From: Centroscyllium fabricii | Lineage: Eukaryota | Assembly (NCBI GenBank): GCA_051313645.2 | Contig: JBNRSN020000022.1 | Coordinates: 3,844,001 to 3,908,000, forward strand | Length of the DNA: 64,000 bases | Direction of reading: 5' to 3' | Shown: one piece after another, positions 11,001 through 44,930 of the stretch | Position numbering within the stretch: the first letter of the stretch is position 1 | Layout: each line of letters starts with the position of its first letter | The notes under the pieces: generated by a model | The model's input: the letters and a program-made list of their open reading frames with translations, nothing else | What the model was told of the DNA's origin: nothing | The model's database searches: none | Position numbers and translations under genes: made by a program

Positions 11001-11473
11001 ACAATTCACAATTCAAAAAGCTTTATTGGCATGAATGATATCAACCGTTGTTGCCAAAGCAGTGCAACATACATAAGAATATTACATTAGTAGAGCATTG
11101 TAACATACATAAAAATAATACATTAGTAGACGTACTACATAGAATAATACATTAGTAGACTTATTGACAACCGTACATTAGTTACGCACACATGTACATT
11201 TATACCCGCATATAGAGCTTGTATGCTCATCCTAGCTTCAATGTCAATGGTCACTGGTTGTCCCTCTGCTTATGACAAGCTGTGACGTAGTTTGCCGCTA
11301 GTTTTATACATTCCCTCTGTTCCCCTAGTAGGTATGGGAGTTTCTGGTGGTCGGTCAAATTTTTGAATTCAGGGCATGCTGTTGCAAATTTTGGGAAGAA
11401 ATTTCCCCTTATTCCCTGATAATTTTCGCAAGTTGTGAGGAAGTGCAGCTCTGTCTCCACCACTCCCTGACTG

Positions 11474-14519: not shown

Positions 14520-15222
14520 CTGTTACAAAGAGCAGTGCTCCTGTGTGGCCTACAGACCGCGTGTTGTAGTAGCACCAGCCGGTGCTAGAGGGACGCGGTT
14601 GCCTAGGTGGGCGCGGGGCCCTAGGTTCAGGCGTAAAATTAGGCCTGGGGGGTGATTGGCTGCGCTCCACCGATGCAGAGTTAGGGTCGCACGTGGTTGA
14701 GCGGGTGCGCTGCGCCTCCATGAGCCTGTCGGCTTCCTCCGCGAGCTCGTCATCGCTCCGTTGGCCAAGGGCCGCCAAGGCCGGTCTGATGGAGCGGGGC
14801 AGTTTAAGGAGGAAGACGGTGCGGAACAGGGAGGCCGGATTGGGTGTAAGCGCTTGCATCTGACCTAAGAGGTCCGATGGGTCTGCGTCCCCGATTTCGG
14901 GGAGGTCGAGGAGCTGGCAGTCGCGCTCGAATTGGGAGGGGGTAAAAAAATTTATAAGCGCGGCCTTAAGGGATTCGTACCTGCCTGTAGTGGGCACATG
15001 CTGTATTTTTGACCACATCCGATCGATCGTCGATTGCGGTAGGGCTGAGAACACCAGGTCGTAGCGGTCGTCCCCCTGGATGCCATGTGTGCGGCAGCTG
15101 GTCTCGATGCACATAAACCAGGCCGCTGGCCGTTGCTCCCAGAACTCCGGTAGAGTTAGTCCACGTCCGAGGTTCTGGCCAAGTCCTTGCGTTCGTGGAG
15201 CTTGGTTCCTTGCTCTTGCCAT
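14506..15222 (-). CDS. Gypsy (CsRN1-like) Gag, truncated after WCYY, running through LLFVTD into the LINE junction
   Basis: The 238-aa ORF has the gag motifs LPEFW..P.AWF, Y..LK.AL and GD..PS.LL..M..L. The Zn knuckle breaks off after WCYY. Confidence 0.75.
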   Translation of the reverse strand: MARARNQAPRTQGLGQNLGRGLTLPEFWEQRPAAWFMCIETSCRTHGIQGDDRYDLVFSALPQSTIDRMWSKIQHVPTTGRYESLKAALINFFTPSQFERDCQLLDLPEIGDADPSDLLGQMQALTPNPASLFRTVFLLKLPRSIRPALAALGQRSDDELAEEADRLMEAQRTRSTTCDPNSASVERSQSPPRPNFTPEPRAPRPPRQPRPSSTGWCYYNTRSVGHTGALLFVTDTQN

Positions 15223-15558: not shown

Positions 15559-16310
15559 GCGGGCTTTTTTCAAAGCCAGTCGAGAGCGGGGCCGAGGAGT
15601 CGGACCTGCGGGGAACCCGAGGAGCGGCGGGAGCAGCATAAAAGGAGCCCGAGAAGGCAGAGAGGCCTTCAGACGAGAGCGGGGCACAGGCAGAGCAGCG
15701 GCAGAGGCCGCAGTTTCGCGGGCTTTTTTCAAAGCCAGGGGGCGGGGCCAATCCATTGGTACCTGTATATAGGTGGAGCAGTTGCTATACCCGAGACACT
15801 ACACTAGTAGTGTCTCCCACCCTTCCACCTCCTCTAACCTTTAGGGGTAGAGGGAATTTAAAAGGTAGGTGATTTATTGTTTATTTTCAGAGACTGAACT
15901 TAAGTGGAAGGGGCTCCTGGACAGAGGTAGCAGTCGGTGGCAGCAGCAGGACCAGGGCAGGAGTTTTTCGCGGGTCTTTCTTTTCAGGAGCAGGCAGCGG
16001 GACGGTACTAGGAGGAGACAACAGGAGGCGGCGGCTATAAAGGCAAGCAGGGTAAGTGATTTATTTATTTTTATTCTTTTTCTGAGGTCTCTGTGGTATA
16101 ACGGGGACTTCTGATAGACTAGCACCCTAGTATATATCTTGTTTCTTTGGTGGTGTTAAATTTTTTGTAAAAGTAATTAGAGGGGTACGTCATGTCAGTG
16201 GAGCTCGGTCCCGTGCTTTGCTCCTCCTGCCACATGTGGGAAGTCAGGGACACCACTGGAGTCCCTGACGACCATGTGTGCGGGAAATGCGTCCACCTTC
16301 AGTTACTGAC
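15559..16310 (+). mobile_element. CR1 LINE 5' UTR and ORF1 N-terminus, cut by an LTR insertion
   Basis: GC-rich UTR with repeated GCGGGCTTTTT(T)CAAAGCC. The ORF at 16192, MSVELGPVLCSSCHMWEV...HVCGKCVHLQLLTD, matches the CxxC..CxKC zinc finger of CR1 ORF1. Confidence 0.75.
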
Positions 16311-16543
16311 TGACGTATCGTCAATTTACTCAATAAAGTCAAAGACGAGTAGTGACCTTAACTACAGGCTTTTATTGACTTACTTTGGAGCTATACTCCG
16401 AACGAACAAACAGGAACAGAATGAGTGAGCCCGGTCAGTCCTCACCTATAAAGGGCCTCACCTGGGGGAGGAGTTAGAGGTGTGGCTGACCTGGCTCCAC
16501 GACAGTGTCGCAACATGTTCAACTATATACATGGCAATATTGG

Positions 16544-19500
16544 TGTGACCGAAATAACGACCTCGTGGACGAGTAGTTAGAAAGAGAAACAATGCGGCTT
16601 TTATTAACTAAATGGTGGGACATGCACCAGCTAGTCGACTGTCCCCAGGTATGGCCGGGGGATGGGGGACAGCCACTTATATACCCCCTCCTGGGAGGGA
16701 GGAGTCGCGGGCGGAGCCAGCCTGGGCATGTCCCGGTAATCGTATAACAGGTTATGTACAACATGGCATTAGGTACGATTACATAGATACAAACAGGGTG
16801 AGTATATACAATAAGAAACAGTGGGAAACAGTGGTTTATCACATTCACCCCTTCTTTAAAACAAAAGTCCGGTGGGGTCAATGCAACAGTTCTTTTATTT
16901 ATTTATTTAATCATAAATTAAGTCGCTCCGGCAGCCTGGTGATCCTAGTCGAGCATCGCACCGCTGGTGGTGTCCGCGGTCGCGGAGTGACCGGCCGAGT
17001 CGGTTGTAGCGATGGTGCTGATGCAGGTTGGCGAGCGGTGATCGTCGGTTGGTTTCTGGGTGGTGGTGCCCTTATACTGACAGTAGGAGGCGCGCTCTCT
17101 CCCTCGTCGTCTGACTCTAGAGGGCGTGCACTGTGGAGCCATGCTGGAGGCCATGCCGTGCTGCTCGCAGGTGCCGGGTGGACGTACTGGTATACTGGGT
17201 CCTCGTGCCAGGGAGCGTACCTTGGCGCCAGTGGCTGGGGTGGCGTGGCTGGCCGCGAAGGCCCGGGTGGGGTGGCAGGCCGTCTTGGGTGCACGGGCTG
17301 CTGGGCGGGGCGTCTTGGGTGCGCGGTCTGCTGTGCGGGGCTGGGTTTGGGGACTCCTGCTGGCGCCAGGTCCTTGATGGACACTGTGTCCTCCCTCCCG
17401 TCGGGGTACACCACGTAGGCGTACTGGGGATTGGCGTGCAAGAGGTGGACCCGTTCGACCAGGGGATCTGCCTTGTGGCCCCTCACATGCTTCCATAGTA
17501 GGACCGGTCCCGGGGATAGCAGCCACGATGGTAGCGAGGTCCCGGAAGCCGACTTCCTGGGGAAGGCAAAAAGTCGTTCGTGAGGGGTGGCATTAGTGGC
17601 AGTACACAGGAGGGACCGGATAGAGTGGAGCGCTTCGGGGAGGACGTCCTGCCATCGGGAGACTGGGAGGCTTTTAGACCGTAGGGCTAACAGGATGGCC
17701 TTCCAGACAGTGGCGTTCTCCCTCTCTACCTGCCCGTTCCCCCGGGGGTTGTAGCTGGTAGTTCTGCTAGTCGCGATGCCTTTGGCTAGCAGAAACTGAT
17801 GCAGCTCGTCACTTATAAAGGACGCTCCCCGGTCACTATGAATATAGTTGGGATAGCCGAACAGGGAGAAGATGCTGTGGAGGGCTTTGATAACAGTGGC
17901 TGAGGTCATGTCCGGGCAGGGGATGGCAAAGGTGAAGCGGGAGTACTCATCGATCACATTAAGGAAGTACACATTCCTGTTGGAGGAGGGAAGGGGCCCT
18001 TTGAAATCGACGCTGAGTCATTCAAAGGGGCGAGTGGCCTTAATCAAGTGCGCCTGGTCTGGCCGGTAGAAGTGCGGCTTGCACTCCACGCAGACCTGGC
18101 AGTTGCTGGTCAGAGTCTTGACCTCCTCGATGGAGTAGGGGAGGTTGCGGGACTTCATGAAGTGAACCAACCTAGTGACCCCCGGGTGGCAGAGGTCATT
18201 GTGAAGGGTTTGGAGGCAGTCTGTCTGTGCGCTGGCACATGGACCGTGGGATAGGGGTCTGGGGGTTCATTAAATTTCCCGGGCCGGAACAAGATATCGT
18301 AATTAAACGCGGGGAGTTCAATTCTCCACCTCAATATCTTGTCGTTCTTGATTTTACCCCGCTCTTTGTTGTTGAACATAAAAGCGACTGATCGTTGGTC
18401 AGTCAACAGGGTAAAACGCTTGCCGGCCAGGTAGTGCTTCCAGTGACGCACTGCTTCAACGATGGCCTGGGCCTCCTTCTCGACTGAGGAGTGGCGGGTC
18501 TCGGGGCCCTGGAGGGTATGTGAGAAGAAGGCCACGGGTCTGCCCGCCTGGTTAAGGGTGGCGGCCAGGGCAAAGTCCGATGCATCGCTCTCTACTTGGA
18601 ATGGGTCGGACTCGTCCACAGCGTGCATTGTGGCTTTTGCGATGTCATTCTTAATGCCGCAGAATGCCGAGCTGGCTTCTGCGGACAGGGGAAAAGAGGT
18701 AGATTTAAGCAGTGGGCGAGCTTTGTCCGCGTAATTGGGGACCCACTGGGCGTAATACGCAAAGAAACCCAAGCACCGTTTAAGGGCCTTGGGGGAGTGG
18801 GGGAGGGGAAGCTCCATGAGGGGGCGCATGCGGTCCGGGTCGGGACCGATGACCCCATTCTCCACAACACTGCCGAGGATGGCCAGGCGGGTGGTATTGA
18901 ACACACACTTTTCGGTGTTATAGATCAAATTAAGTGTTTTGGCGGTGTGGAGAAATTTCTGGAGGTTGGCGTCATGGTCCTGCTGATCGTGGCCGCAGAT
19001 GGTCACGTTATCGAGGTACGGGAAAGTGGCTCGCAGCCCGTACCGATCGACCATTCGGTCCATCTCCCTTTGGAAGACCGAGACCCCATTCGTGACGCCG
19101 AACGGGACCCTAAGGAAGTGATAGAGGCGACCGTCAGCCTCAAAGGCAGTATAGAGACGGTCCTCCGGGCGGATGGGAAGCTGGTGATAAGCGGACTTCA
19201 GATCTATGGTGGAGAACACCCTGAACTGTGCGATCTGGTTCACCATGTCCGCTATCCGGGGAAGGGGGTAAGCGTCTAACTGGGTGAACCGGTTTATGGT
19301 CTGACTGTAGTCAACGACCATCCGGTTCTTCGCTCCGGTTTTTACCACCACTACCTGCGCCCTCCAGGGGCTATTACTGGCCTCGATAACCCCCTCCTTC
19401 AGGAGGCGCTGCACCTCGGACTTAATAAAGTCCATGTCCCCAGCACTGTAGCGCCTACTCTTGGTGGCAACGGGCTTGCAGCCTGGGGTGAGGTTGGCAA

Positions 19501-21243
19501 AAAGCGAGGGAGGGGCGACCTTAAGGGTCAAGAGGCCACAGGTAGCGTGCCGGGGGTGCTGTGCTGAGCGGCGGTTGCTGACCGTGAGCGAGGGAAGGGG
19601 GCCACCGTACGCCATGGTAACACTCTGGAGGTGGCACTGAAAGTCCAGACCCAATAGTAATGGGGCGCAGAGCTGCGGCAGCACGAAAAAGCTAAAATTA
19701 TCAAAATGCACGCCCTGTACAGTTAGGGCCACTGCGCAACGCCCAGAGACGTCCGCAGATTCCGATTTAGAAGCCATCGAAATTCTTTGGCTCGCAGGCA
19801 TAACCTTAAGGGAGAGGCGCTCTACTGTCTCAGGATGAATAAAACTCACTGTGCTCCCATTGTCGAAGAGGCACCCCACGTCTTGTCCGTTCACTTCCAC
19901 CGGCATCATCGATTTCCCAAGCGATTGGGTCTTGTTCTGGTCAAGAGTTACTGATGCTAAAATTGGGTCAGCCGATTCCTCTTGATCCGCAGTGAAGTCC
20001 TCCGGGGCCGGTCCCCAAGATGGCTGCTGCCATGTGGTGTACAGCGGAGGGGGTGGCTGGGTCCAATATGGCGACTGCTGCCACGCGGGGTGCTGAGTGG
20101 GGGATGGTTGAGTCCAATATGGCTGCTCCCATGTTCCGCACGCGGCGCTGCCCGGTTTCGGTTTAGGGGCTGATGTGGTCGCCTTACAGACTTTCGCGTA
20201 ATGTCCTTTTTTACCACATTTTGAGCAGGCCGCTTCTCTTGCCGGGCAGCTACGTCTCTGATGCTGAGACTGCCCGCAGAAGTAACATTTAGCCGTCTTT
20301 GCGTGAGCGGCTGCTATCATTTCTTCCGCCGGCCATTGCGCCGGCATTGTCCAAGATGGCGGGGCTGGGCCCGCATAGTTGCCGGAATAAGATGAGCGGT
20401 TTAGCGAGGCCACGTCCAGCGCGTGTCCCAGATCCGTAGTTGCCTGCCGGTCAAGGCCGTTCTGCTCTAACAGCCTCTGTCTTATATAGTCCGACCTGAG
20501 GCCTGTGACATATGCATCTCTAATGAGACTGTCCGCATGGATCAGGGCCGTTAGCGCTCTGCAGTCACAGGCCCGTGAAAGCACTCTCAGCGCCCTTAAA
20601 AATTCCACGCTGGACTCACCGGGTTGCTGCTTCCTGGTGGCTAGGAGATGTCTGGCGTGGACGATATTGGGTGCCCGGTTGTACTCCGCCTTGAGGATCC
20701 TGATGGCATCCAGAAACGATGATGCCTCCGCGATCATGGAGTACACCTGAGGGGCCACCCAGGCGTTGAGGAGCCGTCGTTTGTCCTCTTCGGTCCTGAC
20801 GACCACAGCGTTCGCTCGCAGGTACGCATCGAAAACACTGCACTAGTGTGTAAAAGTGTTTGATGCGCCTGGTGTCCGGGGGTCCAGTTCAAACGTCGCT
20901 GGCTTGAGCATCGCTTCCATCTTCAAAATTTAGTTAATAAAATTGTGACCGAAATAACGACCTCGTGGACGAGTAGTTAGAAAGAGAAACAATGCGGCTT
21001 TTATTAACTAAATGGTGGGACATGCACCAGCTAGTCGACTGTCCCCAGGTATGGCCGGGGGATGGGGGACGGCCACTTATATACCCCCTCCTGGGAGGGA
21101 GGAGTCGCGGGCGGAGCCAGCCTGGGCATGTCCAGGTAATCGTATAACAGGTTATGTACAACATGGCATTAGGTACGATTACATAGATACAAACGGGGTG
21201 AGTATATACAATAAGAAACAGTGGGAAACAGTGGTTTATCACA
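16544..21243 (-). mobile_element. Gypsy element A, full length (4.7 kb), nested in the 3' LTR of element B
   Basis: 300-bp LTRs at 16544-16843 and 20944-21243 differ at 3 positions. TG...CA ends, TSD ATTGG (16539-16543 and 21244-21248), PPT at 16844-16857. Confidence 0.95.
16911..20920 (-). pseudogene. Element A single gag-pol ORF, disabled
   Basis: ATG at 20920, TAG at codon 26 (20843-20845), frameshift near 18250 and TGA at 18018-18020. Domains: CYFC..H..C/CSKC..GH..C, FDNGS protease, YLDN RT, ESDASD RNase H, and integrase SDRG...GNGQVER. Confidence 0.92.
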
Positions 21244-21313
21244 ATTGGCACCAATATTGTAGTGGTAAACTATGGACAATTATGGTTACCACATTCACCC
21301 CTTCTTGAAAAAT

Positions 21314-24300
21314 TTAAGTCCGGCAGGGTGAATGGACAGCGCAGTTCATTATCAGTTTGTCCGGCGGTCGCGTCTGTCTGGAGGACCGCCGGGGCTCTGG
21401 CAGAAGTTCCGTCTGGTCCGTCCCGCTCGGATTCGGTGGTGGTGACAGCGGCGCTGGTGCCGAAGCTTCAGATGCTGGTGGTATCGCTTGATCCGTGCCA
21501 TCTGAATGGTGGTCTTGCGCTGGCCACGGCTGGGGCTCTGCATACCTCGGTGGCCACTGTAGGTGCAGGGGGTGTTCGAAATATTGTGGCTGGGCGGGCT
21601 GCTGCCTGACCAGTGGCTCTGCTAGGTCCCTGATGGAGACGGTGTCCTCACGCCCGTCCGGGAACTGCACGTATGCGTACTGTGGGTTAGCGTGCAGGAG
21701 CTGCACCTTGTCCACCAGGGGGTCGGACTTGTGGCCGCGGACGTGTTTTCTAAGGAAGACCGGCCCCGGTGTCGTGAGCCATGGAGGAAGAGCTGTCCCC
21801 GAAGTCGACTTCCTGGGAAAGGAAAACACATTAAATCATGAGGGGTGGCGTTGGTGGCCGTACATAGCAGAGAGCGTATCGAGTGCAGCGCGTCGGGGAG
21901 GACTGCCTGCCAATGGGACACTGGAAGGCCTCTGGACTTCAGAGCCAGGGTGACCGCCTTCCAGATGATCCCATTCTCCCTTTCTACCTGGCCGTTCCCC
22001 CGGGGGTTGTAACTGGTCGTTCTGCTCGAGGCAACCCCTTTCTGGAGCAGAAACTGACGCAGTTCATCGCTCATGAACGATGACCCCCGGTCACTATGAA
22101 TGTAGCTGGGGAGACCGAAAATGGCGAACAGCGTGGTGAAGTGTTTTATCACCGTTGCGCTCGTCATATCTGGGCAGGGGAAGGCGAAGTGGAAGCGGGA
22201 GAACTCATCTACGACCGTGAGGAAGTATGAGTTGCGGTCGGTGGAGGGGAGGGGGCCTTTGAAGTCCACGCTCAGACGTTCAAAGGGGCGGGTGGCCTTA
22301 ATGAGGTGCGCCGTGTCTGGCCGGAAAAATTGGGGTTTGCACTCGGCGCAAACAGGGCACTCTCGGGTCATAGCCTTGATCTCCGTGATGGAGTAGGGGA
22401 GGCTACGGGATCTAACGAAGTGGGCGAGTCTGGTGACACCCGGGTGGCAGAGGCGATCGTGGAGATCCTTCAGCCTGTCTAGCTGAGCACTGGCGCACGT
22501 TCCCCTGGACAGTGCGTCCGGGGGATCATTGAGTTTGCCTGGTTGGTAAAGAATGTCGTACTCGTAAGTCGAGAGCTCGATCCGCCACCGCAGGATCTTA
22601 TCATTCTTGATTTTACCCTTTTGTTTATTATTAAACATAAACGCCACCGACCGCTGGTCGGTGAGTAGGGTAAAATGCTTACCGGCCAGGTAATGACGCC
22701 AGTAGCGCACGGCCTCCACGATGGCCCGGGCCTCCTTTCCCACTGCAGAGTGGCAAATTTCGGGTCCCTGTAAGGTGCGGGAGAAAAGCGCTATGGGCCT
22801 GCCTGCCTGATTCAGGGTGGCGGCAAGGGCAAAGTCCGAAGCGTCACTCTCCACCTGGAAAGGGATGGATTCATCAACGGCGTGCATGGTCGCCTTGATG
22901 ATGTCTTCCTTTATCCGGACGAATGCCGTTTGGGCTTCTACCGAGTGGGGGAAGGCGGCAGCCTTGAGGAGTGGTCTAGCCTTGTCCGCGAACTGTGGGA
23001 CCCATTGTGCGTAGTAGGAGAAAACTCCTAGGCATCTCCTCAAGGCTTTGGGGTTGTGAGGAAGGGGCAGTTCCTGTAAGGGGCGCATACGCTGTGGGCC
23101 GGGGCCGAGGACCCCGTTCTCCACCACGTATCTGAGGATGGCGAGCCGATCTGTATTAAAGACACATTTGTCCTTGTTATACGTAAGTTCTAGCCGTTCC
23201 GCCGTGTTGAGGAATTTGGCCAGATTGGCATCGTGGTCCTGCTGGTCATGGCCGCAGATAGTCACATTGCCCAGGTAAGGGAAGGTGGCCCGCAACCCGT
23301 TCTGGTCAACCATGCGGTCCATCTCCCGTTGGAACACTGACACTCCGTTGGTCACGCCGAAGGGGACCCGGAGGAAGTGGTAGAGCCAACCGTTCGCCTC
23401 GAAGGCGGTGTACGGGCAGTCGGCTTTCCGGATCGGGAGTTGGTGACACGCCGACTTAAGGTCGATCATGGAGAACACCTTATATTGGGCGATCTGGTTG
23501 ACCATGTCCGAGATGCGGGGGAGGGGGTAGGCGTCGAGCCCGGTGTAGCGATTAATAGTCTGGCTGTAATCGATAACCAGCCGCTGTTTCTCGCCAGTCT
23601 TCACCACTACAACCTGGGCCCGCCAGGGGCTGGTGCTGGCTTCAATTATCCCTTCCTTCAGCATACGCCCGACCCCCGACCTGATAAATGTCCGATCCCC
23701 CACACTATACCGCCGACTCTTGGTAGCAATAGGCTTGCAGTTGGGGTCGAGATTGGCGAACAGTGAAGGGGGGTCGATTTTCAGGGTGGAGAGGCCGCAG
23801 GCCGGGCTCCGCTTTGGGAAGGGATTGTCCCAGCTACTGACGGTGAGGGGGTGCAGGGTCCCGCCGAACTCCATTGTCACGCTCTTGAGGTGGCACTGGA
23901 AATCCAGTCCCAGTAAGGCTGGGGCGCACAACTGCTTGAGGGTGTTCAACTTAAAGTTACGGTACACACAACCCTTGACTGTGAGGGTGACGGAGCAGTA
24001 GCCGGTGACGTCCGCGGTGTGGGACTGTGAAGCAAGGGAGACTTGGTAGCGCGTGGGCAGGATCTGCAGTCCGTAGCACTGCGCTGTATCGGGGTGGATG
24101 AAGCTCTCTGTGCTTCCAGTGTCGAACAGGCAATTAGTAGTATGGCCGTTAATTTTGATCGGCATGATCGAGTTCGATAGGGTGTGCGGCCTAGCCTGGT
24201 CGACTTTTGGTATGGCTGAGGCCGAAATGTGTGTTTGTGTGTGGGGGCCCCCTGCTGGTTGGGGCTGTACACAAGATGGCGGCGCCCGTGGTTCGCACAT

Positions 24301-24994
24301 GGCGGGCCGCTGGGGACAAGATGGTGGTGCCGAGGGATCGCACATGGCGGGCCGTTGGAGACAAGATGGCGGCGCCCGTGGTTCGCACGCGGCTGACCGC
24401 TGTGAGCGCGCTGGTGGCGCCCGTGGTTCGCACGCAGCGGGCCGCGGTGGCTGGGTTGGCGGTGCCCGTGGTTCGCACGCAGCGAGCCGCGGTGGTTGGG
24501 TTGGCGGTGCCCGTGATTCGCACGCAGCGGGACGCGCTGGGTGTGCTGGCGGCATTGGGGGGTCGCGCTTGGCCGGCCGTGGCTGAGCTTGGCGTGCCGT
24601 GGATGCAGCCGGCCTTTGCCGCATCAGGGTGGGAGATGGGGGTGCTTTTCCTCTACCCCCGGACCGTCGCTGGATCGGGCTGCAATTGCAGCTTACCTGA
24701 GGCCTGGCGGAGCTTTCGCAGGCTGCGCTGTTGTACCTGGAGTTGGGCGCCAGGGCTGATCTGCAGGCCTTTGCATAGTGTCCCTTCTTGGAGCACCTTC
24801 CGCAGGTCGCGGTCTTCGCTGGGCATCTCGCCCGTGGATGTAGTCCCTGGCCGCAGAAGTAGCACCGTCTGTCCGCCTGCGTCTTTGCGGCTGTCGCTGC
24901 CATTGTGGGGGTCTCGTCCCGTTGTGGTGCTGCCCAGGCCTGGGCCCTTTGTGGCGCGGCCCACGCGTCGTAGACCTGCGGGTTTGTGCCGCTG
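21314..24994 (-). pseudogene. Element B gag-pol (double Zn knuckle, protease FDTGS, RT, RNase H, integrase)
   Basis: ORF 21622..24903 (1093 aa) plus frameshifted tail 21314..21829. The RT motif has decayed to YLGN. Confidence 0.9.
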
Positions 24995-25247
24995 GAAATT
25001 TGGATTCTCTTCTGCCTGAACTCTGTTTTGGATTTGTCGCTCCCGTGGACGGACTACCCGGTATTATACTGTTTCTGAATTTGGATTCTCTTCTGCCTGA
25101 ACTCTGTTTTGGACTTGTTGCCTCCGTGAACTTTCTGCCGTTATTGACCTACTGTTTCCTATGTCTTTTACTGCTCAGAAATAAAGGAGTTTACTTCTAC
25201 GTATGTTTTCGGTGTATTGCATTTGGGCCCAACCTACAACCGTTACA
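24995..25247 (+). mobile_element. 3' fragment of an LTR related to the 11474-12454 element
   Basis: AATAAA, then GCATTTGGGCCC...CCGTTACA, matching the reverse complement of 11474-11520. Contains an internal direct repeat of about 36 bp. Confidence 0.7.
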
Positions 25248-29426: not shown

Positions 29427-29498
29427 ATGGCGTCAGAAGCGGCCGAACAAGTTGATGTCTCCAAGAGCGAACAGCAGCAGGAGGAGGGCGAGCAGCAG
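29427..29498 (+). CDS. PLIN3: Perilipin-3-like, coding exon 1 (exon starts at 29411)
   Basis: Acceptor tttccaacag at 29410. Encodes MASEAAEQVDVSKSEQQQEEGEQQ, donor CAG|gt, phase 0 matching the next exon. Confidence 0.75.
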
Positions 29499-29687
29499 GT
29501 ACTTTAACTCCTGGGTGGGGAGGTGTCCCTGTCTCCAGCTCTCTGACCTGCTCACCTGGTCACTGTTTGCTGACCATTGCAATCTGAGCACTGACCTGAG
29601 AAATCTTCTAGTTGTGCAAGATCAGGAGTTCGGGGTCAGTAGTTCGGGAATTGCTCTCTGCTCTATTAGCTCACTCACTCGATGTTG

Positions 29688-29705
29688 CGACCTTTGACCT
29701 ATTTT
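29688..29705 (-). promoter_or_regulatory. Candidate PPRE (DR1) in perilipin intron 2
   Basis: The - strand reads AAAAT-AGGTCA-A-AGGTCG, one mismatch from consensus DR1, with an A/T-rich 5' extension. Confidence 0.55.
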
Positions 29706-29853
29706 GGAATGGCCTGCAATGTTCATGGCCCTGAAATGGAAAGCCGCACAGTTCCTGTATATAGCGGCTTCTAATGCAACGTTAAAACTCAGGGTGCCAA
29801 GAGCAAATTTTAAATCTTACCTTTCTTCAAAACTTATGAATAGTTGGCTTTGA

Positions 29854-30410
29854 TGGAGCAGGCCAGTGTTTCCACTGGTGGGGTGGAGCAGGCCGGTGTT
29901 TCCACTGGTGGGGTGGAGCAGGCCAGTGTTTCCACTGGTGGGGTGGAGCAGGCCAGTGTTTCCACTGGTGGGGTGGAGCAGGCCAGTGTTTCCACTGGTG
30001 GGGTGGAGCAGGCCAGTGTTTCCACTGGTGGGGTGGAGCAGGCCAGTGTTTCCACTGGTGGGGTGGAGCAGGCCAGTGTTTCCACTGGTGGGGTGGAGCA
30101 GGCCAGTGTTTCCACTGGTGGGGTGGAGCAGGCCAGTGTTTCCACTGGTGGGGTGGAGCAGGCCAGTGTTTCCACTGGTGGGGTGGAGCAGGCCAGTGTT
30201 TCCACTGGTGGGGTGGAGCAGGCCAGTGTTTCCACTGGTGGGGTGGAGCAGGCCAGTGTTTCCACTGGTGGGGTGGAGCAGGCCAGTGTTTCCACTGGTG
30301 GGGTGGAGCAGGCCAGTGTTTCCACTGGTGGGGTGGAGCAGGCCAGTGTTTCCACTGGTGGGGTGGAGCAGGCCAGTGTTTCCACTGGTGGGGTGGAGCA
30401 GGCCAGTGTT
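29854..30410. repeat. 30-bp minisatellite (TGGAGCAGGCCAGTGTTTCCACTGGTGGGG), about 18.6 copies
   Basis: Perfect tandem copies except one substitution at 29895. Confidence 0.97.
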
Positions 30411-30459
30411 GCCAATTCCCTGAGTGGTGAGCATATGTCACGCTCTACCACAAGGAGTA

Positions 30460-30960
30460 CATAGAACATAAACATAGAACATACAGCACTGTACAGGCCC
30501 TTGGGCCCTCAATGTAGTGCCGCCCTTAGTCCTTTTCTGATTTTTGCTTTCCCCCCTACTGTTCCTTCCCCTCCATGTACCTGTCTATCATCCTTTTAAA
30601 AGCACCCAGACTGTCCGCATCCACTATTTCAGATGGTAGCCTATTCCATTCCCCGACCACTCTCTGTGTAAAGAACCTGCCCCTGCCATCCCTTCTGAAT
30701 CTTCCTCCTTGAATCTTGTGCTCGTGTCCTCTTGTTGACGTTCTTCCCGCCCGGGGAAACAGTCTTTGCACATTTACTCTATCGATCCCCTTCATCATTT
30801 TAAACATCTCTATCAAGTCCCCCCTCTTCCTTCTCCGTTCCAGTGAGAAGAGTCCCAGCTCCCTCAACCTCTCCTCGTATGACCTTCCTCCCATTCCCGG
30901 CAGCATCCTGGTGAATCTCCTCTGCACCCTCTCCAGCGCCTCCACATCTCTCCTGGAGTA
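30460..30960 (-). mobile_element. CR1 3' end
   Basis: LERVQRRFTRMLPG...RGDLIE and an (ATGTTCT)n-like tail. Confidence 0.88.
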
Positions 30961-32570
30961 GTTTGACTATAGATGCATTTAAAGGGAAGCTAGATAACAA
31001 ATGAGGAATGGAATAGTGGGTTATGCTGATTGAGGGGTGGTGTGTGATTGGTGCATCAACTCTGTCATGGGCTGACTGGCCTGCTGCTGTGCTGTATATT
31101 GTCATTCTTCCAAAAGGTGTGCTTTCTCCAACTTCAGAGGCACTAGCCCCTTTTTTTAGTTCTACTCCTTTTATTTTTCCCGTCTCCAACTATTGAACCA
31201 ATTAACTTTCATTTCTGGAGTATTAATATAGTAAGTGTCTCAAGTGCTTCAGAGACATGGACACTGAAGAGATGACCAGATGTGACTTGCAGTTTTGAAG
31301 GATTTGTGGAGATATCCATGGCAGGGCTGAGATACCTGAAGGCCTGTTCCTGGCATGAAGCAAAGCATTCAGTATAAACTTGTATCCAGTAGCTGTGGTG
31401 AGAAGCATGTAGACAAGCCAGGCTCTGCCTGTTGCTGAGTCTTGTGCCCGGGCAGGTCTGTCAGAAGTCCTTGGGTAAGGTGTCACATAAGATACCCATG
31501 GCAAAAGTCAGGGTATGTGGAGTTTGGTCCAATAACTGAAATAGATTGAAAAATGCCTACATGAGGGTGAGAATTTTTGCGGACTAGTAGAAAGTGGGAA
31601 ATGGTGTCCTGCTGAGATCACTTGTTCACTAATACGTAAATGATTTGGACTCTGGAATGGGGGGGGGGTCAAATTGAGGTGTATAGCAACACACAGATGA
31701 CATGACAAGCTAGTAAAATGGATGGTTAAATGGCAGAGAGGTGGTTGGCCACTTGAAAGATCAACTAAGGGGATGGGTGGGGGGAGGTTGTCTGATCTGA
31801 ATAGATGTGTGCATTGCTAAAAGTAGCAACATTTAGCTGATTAGATCCTAAAGAATGCAAACAAAGTACTAGCAGTCATTTCTGGAATATTAGAATGCAA
31901 AAGCAGGTAGGGGTTTTCCAATTGAGCTTCAGTGCCTTGAACTCTTCATGTGCTCTGCAGTCTTGTAACATCCAATTTCTTTTGTTGGGTGGAATGAGAA
32001 GCCAGCTGCTTGATTTTTGTCTCTTGTGCTTTGTCATGTGCTCTTAATGCTCTAAGCCAGTCCAAAATGGGCCAGCTGCCTTTGCCCTGTAAGAAGTAAT
32101 GTTTTAATTGGTTGCACTAGCAGTAGGTATGCAACTAGACTGCACCGTCTAATCTTTTTTGGTTTTGTGGGGTGGTTTTCAGCTTCTGCACCTGGGTGCT
32201 AGAAGAAAATTTTCACTTGCTGAGTCGGGCAAGTGGATTTCTAAAGCACTTGCCTACTGGGCAAGTAGATTTCTAAAGCACTTGCCCGAACACAAATTTC
32301 ACTTGCCTGAAATTTTTAAAGAAATAAAGAAAGATTTATTTTTAGTTAAAATGCTTCAGTATAATGCCATAGATTGTGATTGTGCCTTTAGTTCCATTGG
32401 CCTGGTTTCTGCCCCTCCCTAAAACTATTGGCCTCTCCATCCTATTCCACCTTTAAAAATCTATTTCCTCAAGCATTCACTCCATTTCTTCATTTGGCTC
32501 TTCCAAACTTTCTGAAGCTTCTGCAAGCTGCGGGCTCCCTCTCTCTCTCTCTCTCTCTCTCCCTGCTTAA

Positions 32571-32712
32571 CTTCATCCAGCAGCCGCTCCAGGTGTGTGA
32601 AGATGCCACAAAAGTTGGGCAGGCTCGACATCTGTTTCTTGTCATTCATCAGCTGCATCAAATAGTCAGGACTGGGTCTAGGCTTCTCCTTCACTTCCAT
32701 TTCCCCCACCAT
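32571..32712 (-). pseudogene. QKI: QKI (quaking) exon 1 duplicate with a broken splice donor; 5' UTR/promoter extends to about 33060
   Basis: [47 protein letters not shown] matches the QKI N-terminus. Similarity stops after 142 nt at GAAG|ttaagc (GT replaced by TT). Confidence 0.85.
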
Positions 32713-33243
32713 TCTTTTATATATATTTTCACCCCTCTGAGCAGTAATTAAAGATTTTATAATTGTTCAAAAGAATAAAGACCGAGTTGTTTCTTTTTCT
32801 TCTCCGAAGCCGCTCCGGTTTTCTCCTTTTTTCCCCCCCGCCCGCCCGCCCAAAGCGGGTCGATGACACCGACCCACTCTTGCCGTGCTGCACCAGCCCG
32901 CTCCACCTAACCTCACTGCTGCCCCGTCCCGATTGACACACCGCCGCCTCCAATCCCTGCCGCCTGCCTTCAGGGTGGGAATCCACCGACCCGTTACCAT
33001 CGTCGTCAACCAATCAATTTGACACACCGCCTCCTCCAATCGACTGCTGCGGCAAACCGAGACGTAAACATGATCATCCTGTGGCCTCTATCATCGATAA
33101 CCCTTTATCCCAAACCCTTGGGACCAGATGTTTTTCGGATTTCGGAGTGAAATTACAAAATAACAAAATATCCGAGCAGCAGACTGGTGGCAGCGCTGGT
33201 CTTCAGGTTTGCAGCCTCTCTTGCACTCTGCCTGTGTATGGGG

Positions 33244-33525
33244 TGACGTATCGTCAATAAGGCAAAAGACGAGTAGTGACCTTAATTACAGGCTTTTATT
33301 AACTTAAAGATGGAGCTAGTCTCTAGTTGAACATCAGGCACAGAATGACTGGGGGCAGGGCAGACCTCACCTATAAGGCTCCCACCTGAGGGGAGGAGTT
33401 AGAGGTGTGGCTGACCTGGCCTTACAACCGTGTTCTACATCCAATGCACCAATCAACTATACACATGTCATGTGGTGCAGTACAACGACAATACAACTAT
33501 ATACAATGGTAATATGATTACCACA
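33244..33525 (-). mobile_element. Solo LTR (B/C family)
   Basis: TGACGTATCGTCAAT...TTACCACA with TSD TGGGG on both sides. Confidence 0.92.
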
Positions 33526-34549
33526 TGGGGAAAAATTATTGCAAACACCAACTGGCACTGACTGATTCCAGGCTCCCCCCGTGCACACCCATTATTCCAT
33601 CCGGTGGCCTTGGTGAGGAGGAGGCCACTGACCCGGGACATGAAGTACTCCCCTGGCCCGCACAGCAGGGCTGCACTGCTGGCTGGCCAGCCGCCCGCCC
33701 CCTATAGTGTGCCCGGCCCAGCACTCACTGATGAGCCTCCACACTTCCTCCACACTCAAGTACATGTTGACCCTGGGACTGCCCCGAAGCACACTCCTGA
33801 GCAGCAGCAGCTCCATGCCACCATCCGGGCCCGCCAGAGGAGCAGCGCCAACCCCTGGCCCCAACTGGGGCCTGCCATTCAACAGCGGTGCCTGGCCAAA
33901 TGAGCAAGTGAGAGCGTGGCTTCACCCCATGGCGGGTAATCTCGGGCAGTCTCTCTGCCTCTTCATCACCGTTTGCTGCCTGTCTGCACGTGCACACCTC
34001 TCCTCCAACCCTCAGCGCTATTGCCGGACCCAGCCACTGCGCAGGCGCCGGGAGGTGCAACTCTGGTCATGTCTGTACATCGCACTTGCCTGGTCGGGCA
34101 GAGATATTTTGATTTGCTTGCCCTTGGTGCATTTTGCTTGCCCCAGGCAAGTGGTTTTGTCATGCTCTGGGCACCAGCTAGCCCACTTTTACATAAACTG
34201 ATGTCTAAAAGTGGCAGCTTGTCGCTCACTTGCTTTATATCCAATTGCAATCAACAATCTCTCGTGGTGTGTTAATCTTTGATGTTACAGCACCAGGTGC
34301 TTTCATGGAGAATTGGATGCTGAGCGGGGTCCCTACTGAGTGACTCTGGCTGCTGTAAATTGCAGGCCATTTCGGGTGTTTAACTGTCTTGGCTAGTCTT
34401 GTGGGAGATCTGTGCTGTAAAGTTATTCCACGGGAAACTAGACTGACTTCTACAGTTGAGACCTTTTGCACTACAAATCTGGAGTACCCATCTTTAGGAT
34501 GGTTGCTCAATCTTTCTTGGCAAAGTATTCCCAATGCCCATATGGGCAC

Positions 34550-34810
34550 TGATGTGCTATCAATAATCTCAAAGACTAGAAGTTATGTGAATAAACAATA
34601 GGCTTTTATTAGCTAAAGAACAGGAGCAGACCTCTGCTGATCGACTGGTCCAGAACTGAGTGGGGTTGACGGCCAGCCTTATACCTGGGTCCAGGGGAGG
34701 AGCCACAGGCGGATTCGGCAGGGGCATGCCCAGGCAGGTTACATGCAGGCAGATATAGTGAACTGGTATAGTGAACTATAATACAATATATACAATAGTG
34801 GTTTACCACA
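34550..34810 (-). mobile_element. Solo LTR (related to the A family)
   Basis: TGATG...GTTTACCACA, GGCTTTTATT motif, TSD GGCAC/GGCGC. Confidence 0.85.
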
Positions 34811-34935
34811 GGCGCTTGCTATAAATTTCAACCCTTAGTCTCTCGAGTTGTACTGAGATGAGTTCCTTCTGGCCCTTGAGTCACTGGAATGAATTACCGT
34901 GCAACGACCTGTTGATTCCATGACTTGTGTTTCAG

Positions 34936-35131
34936 AATGTGGTGAACCGGGTGACGAGTCTGCCTCTCGTAAGCTCCGTGTATGACATGATGATGGCTGC
35001 ATACAACAGCACTAAGGAGAACCTCCCGTATGTGAAGACTGTCTGTGATGTTGCTGAGCAGGGAGTGAAGACCATCTCGGCTATGGCTGTCAGTGGTGCC
35101 AAACCAATTCTAGACAAGCTGGAGCCTCAAA
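34936..35131 (+). CDS. PLIN3: Perilipin-3-like, coding exon 2 (PAT domain)
   Basis: [17 protein letters not shown]...[11 protein letters not shown]...KLEPQ; AG/GT boundaries, 196 bp. Confidence 0.92.
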
Positions 35132-40381: not shown

Positions 40382-43300
40382 TGACGTATCGTCAATATCT
40401 TCGATTTAAAAGAGTCGACGAGTAGTTACCGTAACTAAAGGCTTTTAATCGCTAAGTTTGGAGCTACCCTCCGGAACGAACTTCTGTACAGGAATGAGGA
40501 GCCTCGGTCAGTTTCCACCTATAAAGGGCCTCACCTGGGGGAGGAGTTAGAGGTGTGGCTGACCTGGCTCCCAACAGTATTACACAGGTTACAGGGCTGT
40601 GCCTTACATCTGCACAGCCCATTATTGTTACAATAATACAGTGGTAATCAATCACATAATACGGTTACCACATTCACCCCTTCTTGAAAATTTTAAGTCC
40701 GGGGGGGATGAATGGGTCGAACAGGTTACGATCAGTCTGTCCGGCGGTCGTGTCTGCCTGGAGGACCTCCGGCGGTGGTGGTGGTGCCTCCTGGTCTGCA
40801 CCACTCGCGTCTGCCGGTGGTGACCGCTGATCAGGTGCCGTGGCTTCTGGTGGCGATGGATCCGGCTGGTCCACGCCGTCCGGGTGGTAGTTTTGTGCTG
40901 GCCACTGCTGGGGCTCTGGGAAACTCAGGGGCCATCGTGTGTCTGGTGGGTTCACTGGATACAGCGGCTGAGCGGCCTGCTGGCCAACCAGGGGCTCTGC
41001 GGTGGTGCTTCCTGCGGGAGCCAGGTCCCTGATGGACACGGTGTCCTCACGCCCGTCCAGGAACTGCACGAATGCATAGTGTGGGTTTGCGTGTAGGAGC
41101 TGCACCTTGTCCACCAGGGGATCTGTCTTGTGGCTCCAGACATGTCTCTTAAGGAAGACCGGCCCCGGTGTCGTCAGCCATGGAGGGAGAGCTGTCCCCG
41201 AAGTCGATTTCCTGGGGAAGGAGAAAATCAGTTCATGCGGGGTGGCGTTAGTAGCAGTACATAATAGCGAGCGTATAGAGTGCAGCACGTCTGGGAGGAC
41301 TGCCTGCCAATGGGCCAATGGAAGGCCTCTGGACTTCAGAGCCAGGGTGACCGCCTTCCAGATGATCCCATTCTCCCTTTCTACCTGGCCGTTCCCCCGG
41401 GGGTTGTAACTGGTCGTTCTGCTCGTGGCAACCCCTTTCTGGAGCAGAAACTGACGCAGTTCATCGCTCATGAACGATGACCCCCGGTCGCTATGGATGT
41501 AGCTGGGGAGACCGAAAATGGCGAACAGCGTGGTGAAGTGTTTTATCACCGTTGCGCTCGTCATATCTGCGCAGGGGAAGGGGAAGCGGGAGAACTCATC
41601 CACTACCGTGAGGAAGTATGAGTTGCGGTCAGTGGAAGGGAGGGGGCCTTTGAAGTCCACGCTGAGACGTTCAAAGGGGCGGGTGGCCTTAATGAGGTGC
41701 GCCGGGTCTGGCCGGAAAAAGTGGGGTTTGCACTCGGCACAGACAGGGCACTCTCTGGTCATAGCCTTGATCTCCGTGATGGAGTAGGGGAGGCTACGGG
41801 ATTTAACGAAATGGGTGAGTCTGGTGACACCCGGGTGGCAAAGGCGGTCGTGGAGGTCCTTCAGCCGGTCTAGCTGGGCACTGGCGCACGTTCCCCTGGA
41901 CAGTGCGTCCGGGGGTTCATTGAGTTTACCTGGTCGGTAAAGAATGTCGTACTCGTAAGTCGAGAGTTCGATCAGCCACCGCAGGATCTTATCATTCTTG
42001 ATTTTACCCCGTTGTTTATTATTAAACATAAACGCCACCGACCGTTGGTCGGTGAGCAGGGTAAAACGCTTACCGGCCAGGTAATGACGCCAGTAGCGCA
42101 CGGCCTCCACGATGGCCTGGGCCTCCTTTTCCACTGCTGAGTGGCGAGTTTCGGGTCCCTGTAAGGTGCGGGAGAAAAACGCTATGGGCCTGCCTGCCTG
42201 ATTCAGGGTGGCAGCAAGGGCGAAGTCCGAAGCGTCACTCTCCACCTGGAAAGGGATGGATTCATCAACAGCGAGCATGGTCGCCTTGATGTCTTCCTTT
42301 ATCCTTGCGAATGCCGTTTGGGCTTCTACAGAAAGGGGGAAGACGGCAGCCTTGAGGAGTGGTCTAGCCTTGTCTGCGAACTGTGGGACCCATTGTGCAT
42401 AATAGGAGAAAAATCCTAGACATCTCCTCAAGGCTTTGGGATTGTGAGGTAGGGGCAGTTCTTGCAGGGGTCGCATACGCTGTGGGTCGGGGCCGAGGAC
42501 CCCGTTCTCCACCACGTATCTGAGGATGGCGAGCCGGTCTGTATTAGACACATTTGTCTTTGTTGTACGTAAGGTCCAGCTTAGCCGCCGTGTCGAGGAA
42601 TTTGGCCAGATTGGCATCGTGATCCTGCTGGTCGTGGCCGCAGATGGTCACGTTGTCCAGGTAGGGGAAGGTGGACTGCAACTCATTTTGGTCAACCATA
42701 CGGTCCATCTCCCGTTGGAACACTGACACTCCGTTGGTCACGCCAAAGGGGACCCGGAGGAAGTGGTATAGCCGACCGTTCGCCTCGAAGGCGGTGTAGT
42801 GGCAGTCGGCTTTCCGGATCGGGAGCTGATACGCCAATTTAAGGTCGATCGTAGAGAACACCTTGTACTGGGCGATCTGATTGACCATGTCTGAGATGCG
42901 GGGAAGGGGGTAGGCGTCGAGCCCGGTGTAGCGGTTGATAGTCTGGCTATAATCGATCACCAGCCGTTGCTTCTCGCCAGACTGTCCCGGCTACTGACGG
43001 TGAGGGGGGGCAAGGTCCCGCCGAACTCCATTGTCACGCTCTTGAGGTGGCACTGGAAATCCAAGCCTAGTAAAGCTGGGGCACACAACTGCTGGAGGGT
43101 ATACAATTTAAAATGATGGTACACGCGCCCCTTGACTGTGAGCGTGACGGAGCAGTAGCCGGTGACGTCCGCGGTGTGGGACTGTGAAGCTAGGGAGACT
43201 TGGTAGTTAGTGGGCCGGACCTGCAGTCCGCAGCGCTGCACTGTATCTGGATGTACAAAGCTCTCAGTGCTTCCTGTGTCAAACAGGCAGTTAACAGTAT

Positions 43301-44930
43301 AGTCGTTAATCTTAATCGGCATGATATAATTAGACAGGGTATGTGGCCTGTCCTGGTTCACTCTGAGTCTGGCCGCAGCCGTGCGTTTCCGTGTGTGGGG
43401 CCCTTGCTGGTCGGGGCCGCACACAAGATAGCGGCGCGCCTGGCTCGCACATGGTGGGGCCCTGGATACAAGATGGCGGCGCCCCTGGCTCGCACATGGT
43501 GGGGCCCTGGGTACAAAATGGTGTCGCCGAGGGGTCGCACATGGTGGGCCGCTGTGAACGCGCTGGCGGCGCCCGTGATTCGCACGCAGCGGACCGCGGT
43601 GACTGGGTTGGCGGTGCCCGTGATTCGCACGCAGCGGGCCGCGGTGGTCGGGTTGGCGGTGCCCGTGATTCGCACGCAGCCGGCCGCGTTGGGGGGTCGC
43701 GCTTGGCCGGCCTTTGCCGCATCGGGGTGGGAGATGGGGGCGCTTGTTTTCTACCCCCGGACCGTCGCTGGATCGCGCTGCTATTGCAGCTTACCTGGTG
43801 TCTGTTGGTGCTCTCTCAGGCTGCGCTGTTGTACCTTGGGTTAGGCGCTGCTGGAGCTGATCTGCAGGCTTTAGCATAGTGCCCTTTCTTGGCGCACCTC
43901 TCGCAGGTCGCTGTCCTGGCTGGGCATTTCGCTCTTGGGTGCAGTCCTTGGTTACAGAAGTAACAGCGCTTATCTTTAGTGGCTGTCGCAGCCATCGTGG
44001 GGGTCTCGGCCCGTTGCGGTGCTGCCCAGACCTGGGCCCGTTGTGGCGCGGCCCATATGTCGTAGGCATGCGGGTTAGTGCCGCTGTACGCCTGCAACTT
44101 GTTTCGTGCCCCCTCTACCGAATTGGATATCTTGATCGCATCCTCGAGGGACAGAGTGTCTTTCTCCAGCAGCCGCTGGCGGGCTTCCACACACCTTAGT
44201 CCAGTAACGTAAGCGTCCCGAACGAGGAGGTTCGCCTCCTCTTCAGCTGTTCTGGCTTGGCAGCCACAGACCCGTACCAGGGCCTGGAGCGCTTGCTCGA
44301 ACTGCTCGTTGGTCTCACCCGGTAGCTGAGATCTGGTAGCAAGCACATGTCTGGCGTAGACCAAATGTACCGGGCGCTCGTAGCACTTCCTTATCTTCTC
44401 CACGGCCACTGGGTAGGTTGCGCCGTTCCTGATGAGGGAGAATACCCTGCTGGAGATCCTCGACCGGAGGACCTGTAATTTGTTCCCGTCTGTTGTAGCC
44501 TTGTCGGCGTCCATGTAGGCCTCCAGGAGGCCGAACCAGTGTTCGAACGTGGTAGCAGCGGCAGGGTCCTGGGGACTGATGTCCAGTTTCTCTGGTTTGA
44601 CTGCGCTGCTCTCCATTTTAAAATACTTAGCGATTAAAATTGACGTATCGTCAATATCTTCGATTAAAAGAGTCGACGAGTAGTTACCGTAACTAAAGGC
44701 TTTTAATCGCTAAGTTTGGAGCTACCCTCCGGAACGAACTTCTGTACAGGAATGAGGAGCCTCGGTCAGTTTCCACCTATAAAGGGCCTCACCTGGGGGA
44801 GGAGTTAGAGGTGTGGCTGACCTGGTTCCCAACCGTATTACACAGGTTACAGGGCTGTGCCTTACATCTGCACAGCCCATTATTGGTACAATAATACAGT
44901 GGTAATCAATCACATAATACGGTTACCACA
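40382..44930 (-). mobile_element. Gypsy element C with both LTRs, in perilipin intron 6
   Basis: LTRs 40382-40672 and 44641-44930 differ by 3 substitutions and 1 indel. TSD GTAAG (40377-40381 and 44931-44935), PPT at 40673-40685. Confidence 0.95.
40674..44616 (-). pseudogene. Element C gag-pol, frameshifted and with a deletion of about 226 bp before RT
   Basis: ORFs 43816..44616 (gag), 42957..43424 (protease), 42544..42960 (RT, YLDN) and 40674..42617 (RNase H, integrase). The segment equivalent to 23598-23823 of element B is absent. Confidence 0.92.

Follow-up and report, generated by a model that had tools for sequence, protein, structure and literature searches.

A high-copy non-autonomous hAT family carrying the 5′ end of a quaking gene, with one copy in a perilipin intron of Centroscyllium fabricii

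The window analysed here is a 64,000-nucleotide stretch of Centroscyllium fabricii DNA (GCA_051313645.2, contig JBNRSN020000022.1, positions 3,844,001 to 3,908,000), and between its positions 32192 and 34169 (1,978 bases) lies a single copy of a high-copy, non-autonomous family of hAT transposons in which a 5′ piece of a quaking gene is embedded. We judge it probable, with some room for doubt, that the quaking piece was captured once by template switching, that a ZNF862-like transposase moved the loaded element, and that the window copy is now a neutral passenger. An initial annotation had described the 2-kb block as a promoter-bearing piece of the QKI gene apparently captured within a hAT-like element in a perilipin intron. 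Capture and location both hold; quaking DNA, however, accounts for no more than about 550 of the 1,978 bases, and the donor is the paralogue annotated quaking-A or quaking-like in sharks rather than the locus closest to human QKI. Nor does the block stand alone: the window copy is one decayed element among thousands in a family that has taken up several cargos.

The copy in the window and its quaking donor

The family's ends are imperfect 15-bp terminal inverted repeats that start CAGGG, with GGGCAAG repeats at both ends. In the window copy, the 15-bp repeats have 32192 and 34169 as their outer bases and are flanked by TGCAC and GGCAC, a 5-bp target-site duplication in which four of the five bases match. 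The bracketing motif clusters, likened in the initial annotation to subterminal repeats of a DNA transposon, proved to be hAT ends with a transposase-coding form elsewhere in the genome: both align to one such copy (L236), and the proposed outer bases were exact. Both junctions are bridged by contigs with 0–2 differences (two samples from one organism). Besides its hAT ends and quaking-derived part, the copy consists of a solo insertion resembling a long terminal repeat (LTR), a piece like the end of another DNA transposon, and a GC-rich module, arranged as follows.

32187-32191, plus strand: left copy of the target-site duplication (TGCAC), matching the right copy at 4 of 5 bases; 5 bp is the modal length in the family
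32192-32206, minus strand: terminal inverted repeat of the transposase 3′ end, decayed; the same end occurs in transposase-coding copies
32207-32373, minus strand: hAT 3′ subterminal region with CACTTGCC/GGGCAAGT repeats; 111 matches and 13 mismatches to L236 over 32247-32373
32374-32502, minus strand: spacer typical of the subfamily of the window copy, common to sister copies
32503-32570, minus strand: start of quaking intron 1 with a (GA)n tract, the donor GT now TT at 32570-32569; aligned to the donor gene over 32531-32570
32571-32712, minus strand: coding part of quaking exon 1, 47 codons plus 1 base, matching Quaking protein over about two-thirds of the QUA1/STAR dimerisation region
32713-33052, minus strand: quaking 5′ untranslated region (UTR) and GC-rich, CCAAT-containing upstream region (presumed promoter), aligned to the donor gene
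33053-33244, unstranded: family junction sequence and a short piece like a Tc1/mariner-type transposon end; in sister copies too, absent from the transposase-coding hAT copy compared
33245-33528, unstranded: later solo-LTR-like insertion, TG...CA, with TGGGG on either side; missing here in 18 independent copies, present in the segmental duplicate
33529-34075, unstranded: GC-rich module, found also in family members without quaking and in 16 of 46 end-anchored elements
34076-34169, minus strand: hAT 5′ end, with subterminal repeats and the terminal inverted repeat (34155-34169); 77 matches and 13 mismatches to L236
34170-34174, plus strand: right copy of the target-site duplication (GGCAC)

The quaking identity of the cargo rests on both protein and gene. 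The minus strand from 32712 to 32571 matches Quaking (PDB 4jvh, E 9e-21), in keeping with the antisense run of 47 QKI codons first proposed, and 592 proteins match the exon peptide at E<=0.001, the best named being quaking or QKI. Ranked by identity, the nearest proteins include some from sharks and skates (94–96%), and shark and skate proteins match the later exons of the donor as well. That donor gene has its exon 1 at C834:40,914,380, and seven further matches follow it collinearly on that strand; contig C834 therefore holds the intact gene. At the end of the exon it reads GAAG/GTAGGC, where the window copy has TT, so that both the proposed loss of the splice donor and the exon boundary, which had been placed by analogy with human QKI, are borne out at the same position.

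Alignment of window and donor from 33052 to 32531 gives 386 matches and 83 mismatches (about 82% identity), and thus reaches almost to the limit of about 33060 that had been placed on the CCAAT-containing upstream region. Three CCAAT/ATTGG words lie within the window copy (32950, 33010, and 33036), and its observed/expected CpG ratio over −330 to +142 is 0.86, like that of the donor. Carriage of the upstream region, donor site, and intron start agrees with the earlier view that the block is not a spliced retrocopy; a processed or semi-processed retrocopy was likewise rejected here, as homology ends inside intron 1, the upstream region is carried, and no poly(A) tail was seen.

Only 2 of 30 loci from the protein search had the exon without transposon ends, namely L027 on C834 and L028 on C916. 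Contig C916 breaks off some 2.6 kb inside intron 1, and we regard it as the donor 5′ end assembled a second time; upstream comparisons with the donor were made against it. The two loci agree over exon 1 and the UTR and differ further upstream. No family end was found around either assembled exon-1 copy (30 kb at C834, 12 kb at C916), which, together with the ordered later exons, answers the question of whether the motif clusters also flank the parental locus. The assignment to a paralogue comes from exon 2, which in the donor resembles shark proteins named quaking-A or quaking-like, whereas a second locus (C1044) resembles the human sequence in 4jvh; exon 1 of the C1044 gene was not found within 20 kb upstream of its exon 2.

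Intron 1 of the donor contains a GA-rich repeat of about 5.2 kb from base 30 onwards (L053), and one subfamily aligns with the donor before and after this repeat. The transposon copies keep an older, unexpanded state of the quaking intron, from before the 5-kb repeat expansion. Bases 32503-32530 of the window copy are likewise taken to be ancestral quaking intron since lost by the donor, because a sister subfamily has an extra stretch between two donor-matching parts. The adjoining spacer (32374-32502) had no match in the donor DNA compared and its source was not found, and the subterminal region beside it holds a short local duplication private to the window copy and its segmental duplicate.

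The exon part of the window copy differs from the family consensus at 10 positions over 148 bases, and in sister copies it covers positions 1–35 of the 53 in the Pfam STAR_dimer profile. QUA1 is described as mediating dimerisation in the available text of one study (PMC5626755). A role of the exon-1 peptide as a dominant-negative was considered and dropped, given that only 35 of 53 profile positions are covered and the copies are unconstrained.

The short piece within 33053-33244 is presumably of Tc1/mariner type, and the LTR-like insertion is 74–80% like sequence beside the Gypsy-type open reading frames (ORFs) of the window. The GC-rich module yielded no identification in Pfam, the representative library, or the Atlas, and its source was not found; its 110-residue frame in the window had 0 matches in the representative library and one Atlas match at 0.78, which is a lead only. 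A Pfam scan covering 300 of 510 representative frames from element interiors returned only quaking, one hAT tail, an inserted long interspersed element (LINE), and four weak sub-threshold hits. Searching with the neighbouring module brought up 29 further loci, all of them family members. The module was also considered as an exon, and this was dropped: the splice donor beside it in L014 belongs to a separate capture, from C113.

A dispersed family with shared ends and several cargos

The multiple copies with the same cargo and termini that capture would predict were found by DNA, protein, and exact-pattern searches of the 7.2-Gb genome. Searching with the quaking part gave 4,800 DNA candidates (40 of 40 scored match) and 1,187 protein candidates (150 of 150 scored match). 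Exact patterns, whose counts are lower bounds and whose reversed controls were all 0, gave 609 hits for a 21-mer in the exon, with both donor copies counted; 1,687 for the junction specific to a derivative in which the coding part is gone and the promoter region and GT donor remain; and 1,984 for a 26-mer of one end, nested inner ends included. These patterns are carried exactly by 14 of 18 sampled copies (exon), by about half of the sampled derivatives (14 of 29, near-identical pattern), and by 2 of 12 quaking-anchored copies (end). Eighteen independent copies align with the window copy inside the element and break off at its ends. Flanks differ across the family and carry distinct target duplications. 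Both ends and the quaking-derived part are also contained in four other organisms from two studies.

One further locus (L002) is a segmental duplicate: window positions 24,992-50,265 recur inverted at C734:36.03-36.05 Mb with 96–99% identity, within the 30 kb fetched. This duplicate of the perilipin locus, 32 Mb away, may extend beyond those 30 kb. It has the same TT and the same LTR; the change from GT to TT is therefore real and older than the duplication. It is private to these two copies, GT being kept in 47 of 53 others.

Cargo content was tallied in 46 complete elements, taken from the first 80 of the 1,984 end hits and all located on contig C1. The quaking coding part was present in 4 of them, the quaking upstream region and donor alone in 29 (27 with GT), and no quaking in 13. 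An inner 5′ end in the same orientation occurred in 25 of the 46, marking these as composites. CENPW sequence was found in 2, a third promoter-like module in 15, and the GC-rich module of the window in 16. Element interiors have a median GC content of 0.60 and CpG ratio of 0.74, against a window background of 0.44 and 0.38.

Over 181 bases the CENPW piece shows 91.7% identity to its gene, which was located through exon 2; the match takes in upstream region and exon 1, and the piece ends at the donor site; Pfam scored its 31 residues at E 0.0023, below the cut-off. Another subfamily carries intron-like DNA from C113. The third cargo (L105, positions 110–520 of the element; 1,203 candidates) comprises a CCAAT/GC-box region and a short frame ending M-N-R-W with a GT donor, and its donor gene was absent from the 30 loci checked.

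Family copies also lie close together or near other genes. At L019, L005, L220, and L244, second copies sit beside or inside others within a few kilobases, one of them inverted relative to its neighbour. At L076, a truncated copy lies just upstream of an exon that we take to resemble ENAH/EVL exon 2, probably as an insertion in an intron of that gene.

Target duplications were read from 102 complete elements out of 260 loci, with the donor, paralogue, CENPW, and duplicate loci excluded. Exact duplications were of 5 bp in 36, 6 bp in 11, 7 bp in 8, and 8 bp in 1, whereas shuffled flanks gave at most 0.42 per length. The 5-bp class therefore makes up 36 of the 56 exact duplications and the 6- and 7-bp classes 19, and the canonical hAT length of 8 bp is limited to a single element. 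One 7-bp duplication is confirmed independently at L010, where the family copy interrupts an ORF—Harbinger-like, we presume—whose reading frame fixes the length.

The link to a transposase came from L026, which is laid out as 5′ end, quaking, repeat fragment, transposase tail, and 3′ end. Its quaking intron spans about 370 bases and is succeeded by a common repeat fragment, beyond which the final 96 codons of a hAT transposase lead into the 3′ end of the element. A search with this tail matched in 150 of 150 scored candidates, and 20 loci, chosen for longer frames or a different start, were fetched. These proved to be elements of about 2.8 kb and longer with the same two ends as the quaking-carrying family, and 13 of the 19 besides L228 align to its N-terminal transposase region. 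The frames match Pfam zf-C17orf113 (E 5.9e-10) and Dimer_Tnp_hAT (PF05699; E 8.3e-5, 22.7 bits versus a cut-off of 21.4). For the 558-residue frame, 7,997 candidates yielded four relatives, the best being a ZNF862-like protein from a sea urchin (53%); for the 96-residue tail, none of 95 candidates was a longer relative. Exact 5-bp duplications flank 8 of the 20 transposase loci, 6 of these being long-transposase copies. Six transposase-tail matches cluster within about 0.5 Mb at C823:32.59-33.10 Mb, which suggests local tandem duplication.

Two other assignments were rejected. A Tigger/pogo (Tc1/mariner) miniature element, which would have TA duplicated at its outer ends, is not favoured, as 2-bp exact matches (3 of 58) do not exceed the 3.64 found in shuffles and the outer ends are common to the hAT transposase. 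The P superfamily makes duplications of 7–8 bp; here that length occurs in 9 of 102 elements, and apart from zf-C17orf113 and the hAT domain the partner frames gave a single, weak Pfam match, to an unrelated family.

The family copies evolve neutrally. In 53 copies that were not picked by protein match, the exon contains indels in 20 and stops in 4. Synonymous and non-synonymous divergence (pS and pN) are 0.056 and 0.036, and non-CpG codons give a pN/pS of 1.08. Divergence is 0.103 at CpG sites and 0.032 elsewhere. A tree of 56 rows comprises three star-like subfamilies with a median end branch of 0.039 (bootstrap not settled; placement of the donor, beside a long row, unreliable), and the window copy has a branch of 0.087.

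Origin, significance, and competing readings

Four steps would account for these observations. In the first, template switching while DNA was being repaired or replicated would have exchanged about 2.2 kb of the interior of one hAT copy for a stretch of quaking that runs from the promoter region through exon 1 to about 370 bases into intron 1; the final 96 codons of the transposase would have stayed in place, a layout that one subfamily retains. A switch into a single hAT copy is suggested because, in the subfamily with the longest cargo, 5′ end and transposase tail belong to the same element. In the second step, the loaded element would have been amplified in trans. In the third, internal deletions, more template switches, and joint mobilisation of neighbours may have produced mosaic subfamilies and added cargo such as CENPW exon 1; the commonest subfamily would have lost its coding part between two similar short words and kept the promoter region and GT donor. 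Finally, one copy would have landed in the perilipin intron, changed GT to TT, gained a solo LTR, and then been duplicated as part of a segment of the perilipin locus no shorter than 25 kb. We consider the window copy itself probably inert.

Several results weigh against this account. No family end is seen in the DNA around the quaking donor, and so neither is any element that neighboured it at capture. The original junctions have been overwritten, and with them the route and any microhomology of the first capture. None of the 20 transposase copies fetched is intact (the longest frame has 558 codons), so mobilisation by a ZNF862-like enzyme is argued from shared ends and the length of the target duplications; no exact 6- or 7-bp duplication was found among the long-transposase copies, and 46 of the 102 complete elements have no exact duplication at all. 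pN/pS is 0.64 when CpG codons are included and 0.2–0.32 in the protein-selected sample, the latter being expected from how that sample was selected. The donor branch in the tree is 0.13, against the median of 0.039, and the family consensus encodes the donor's 47 residues exactly, its five differing sites all being synonymous. This requires a faster rate at the donor locus, which would be the simplest reading because the window copy's own branch is as long as 0.087. The copy samples are, furthermore, biased to low divergence, and the end-anchored sample comes from one contig.

Acquisition by a different route, in which a pair of neighbouring hAT copies flanking exon 1 moved together as a single unit, is rather improbable. 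Joint mobilisation is known for plant Pack-TYPE elements, according to the available text of one report (PMC8903248), and could be read into the 25 of 46 end-anchored elements with an inner, same-orientation end, as well as into a family member whose end is about 1.2 kb from CENPW exon 1, on its upstream side (C1:428,956,600-428,957,600), and another about 21 kb from the donor of a further cargo. The subfamily with the longest quaking piece, however, has no leftover inner ends and draws both its 5′ end and its transposase tail from one and the same element, and the quaking donor has no such neighbour in the 30 kb and 12 kb compared. The member beside CENPW exon 1 is truncated at both ends and already has quaking-derived parts; it may be a later insertion.

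Template switching followed by neutral drift is also preferred over co-option of the window copy, for example as an antisense promoter regulating the perilipin gene, which we regard as very unlikely. The CpG-rich upstream region and its three CCAAT words have been kept, the 47-codon frame is open, and the copy is retained at both duplicated loci. Against this, its branch is longer than that of most copies, its splice donor is lost, the CpG sites of its exon have decayed, and the LTR insertion lies about 190 bases upstream of the part that matches the donor.

Marginally less credible still is entry of the loaded element from another lineage through horizontal transfer or hybridisation, with the resident gene not its direct donor. 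The consensus and the resident exon differ by five synonymous and no non-synonymous changes, and their non-coding distance is about 0.15, compared with about 0.04 among copies. The branch of the window copy nevertheless indicates that rates vary at least two-fold by locus, the donor locus has undergone large repeat expansions, five changes carry a wide error, and the presence of the family in four other organisms fits vertical descent. That the block is an unspliced retrocopy or simple segmental duplicate of quaking that happens to lie between unrelated repeats, or an artefact of assembly, can practically be dismissed: the wider region really is segmentally duplicated, but hundreds of copies share the same cargo–end junctions with different flanks and target duplications, the upstream region and intron are present with no poly(A) tail seen, and independent contigs bridge both junctions.

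A broader proposal is that the hAT family succeeded by carrying host promoters: the quaking CpG-island promoter region and GT would have been kept, often doubled, and the coding part shed, so that thousands of promoter-plus-first-exon cassettes were seeded, some of them now alternative starts of host genes, all by one transposase with a variable 5–7 bp stagger. We consider this doubtful. Quaking upstream DNA is held by 33 of the 46 end-anchored elements, 29 of them without the coding part; interiors are rich in GC and CpG; and the CENPW cargo is likewise a promoter with exon 1. Some cargo, on the other hand, is AT-rich and intron-like, CpG sites decay three times faster than others, and a founder effect explains the same counts.

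In the available portions of a survey of 100 animal genomes (PMC8277862), 370 Pack-TIRs (gene pieces between terminal inverted repeats) are reported, of which 4 cases (1.4%) are multicopy, with 3–5 copies where stated. The median cargo is 224 bp, hAT is the commonest carrier, and young cases were filtered at >=90% identity to the parent. The survey concludes that animal Pack-TIRs are almost all single-copy and arise without transposition; a term search of its 12 supplement files found "shark" in one row only, elephant shark, with 0 Pack-TIRs. The quaking family resembles its frog Pack-hAT-N8_XT (CAPSL 5′ UTR) and fly Ssk-FB4 in having terminal inverted repeats around a host 5′ gene piece, a donor on another chromosome-scale contig, distinct target duplications, and GC-rich cargo (PMC8277862). 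Unlike the animal cases in those portions, it has more than 600 exon-bearing and more than 1,600 promoter-plus-donor copies, several cargos, and nested composites. The contrast is partly methodological, because the 90% filter—a search setting, above the family's identity of about 82% to its donor—and the unique-parent rule would have missed the quaking family. By the survey's biological definition, the family is a multicopy Pack-TIR (PMC8277862): transposon ends lie on both sides, the parent is not transposon-flanked within the 30 kb and 12 kb compared, the cargo is not intronless, and exact duplications of 5–8 bp flank 56 of 102 elements.

Plant Pack-MULE, Pack-CACTA, and Pack-hAT elements are also similar, with large clusters, stepwise cargo gain, and fusion of same-orientation neighbours (PMC8903248). 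They differ in host, that of the quaking family being a vertebrate, and in that the plant hAT elements described there all have 8-bp duplications, as opposed to 5–7 bp here (PMC8903248). Eight base pairs is usual for hAT, while hAT5, hAT6, and hAT7 are named for 5, 6, and 7 bp and hAT5 is reported from invertebrates and fish, as given in the available parts of two sources (PMC12730594; PMC9004415). The modal 5 bp of the quaking family is like hAT5, but whereas each of those groups is defined by one length, the family's ends give 5, 6, and 7 bp (36:11:8). The literature search found no report of mixed 5–7 bp duplications from one set of ends and no shark or quaking capture case; Repbase, Dfam, and subscription journals lay outside its scope, and the family may be catalogued there without its cargo having been recognised.

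The quaking family thus behaves in a vertebrate like the plant Pack-MULE and Pack-CACTA elements, with hundreds to thousands of copies, the 5′ ends of several genes, nested composites, and an identifiable transposase partner. It offers a large sample for studying the route of capture and whether dispersed CpG-island promoters with live splice donors are used, and its copies would overwhelm attempts to annotate exon 1, or to map reads to it, in both quaking and CENPW.

The host locus and its surroundings

The window copy sits in the perilipin intron 29499-34935, with quaking antisense to the host gene. The exons on either side are as follows.

29427-29498, plus strand: likely first coding exon of the perilipin-family host gene, inferred from an ATG, 24 codons, and a GT donor in phase with the next exon
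34936-35131, plus strand: next coding exon of the perilipin-family host gene (Pfam Perilipin, E 8.6e-31)

No whole-element joint, as expected of an empty perilipin site, occurred among 15 of 50 joints listed for one organism, four other organisms being without flank coverage. The same intron contains a near-perfect 30-bp tandem repeat at 29850-30410, and a second solo-LTR-like repeat lies just outside the window copy at 34549-34760.

Beyond the intron, about 11 kb of degenerate short-unit satellite with a GC skew near −0.75 occupies positions 1-11040, and a reverse-transcriptase-like frame of 753 codons lies at 12261-14522. Retroelements that we take to be of Gypsy type lie on the minus strand at 16300-25100 and 40400-44900, with long gag-pol frames of 895 and 1,143 codons.

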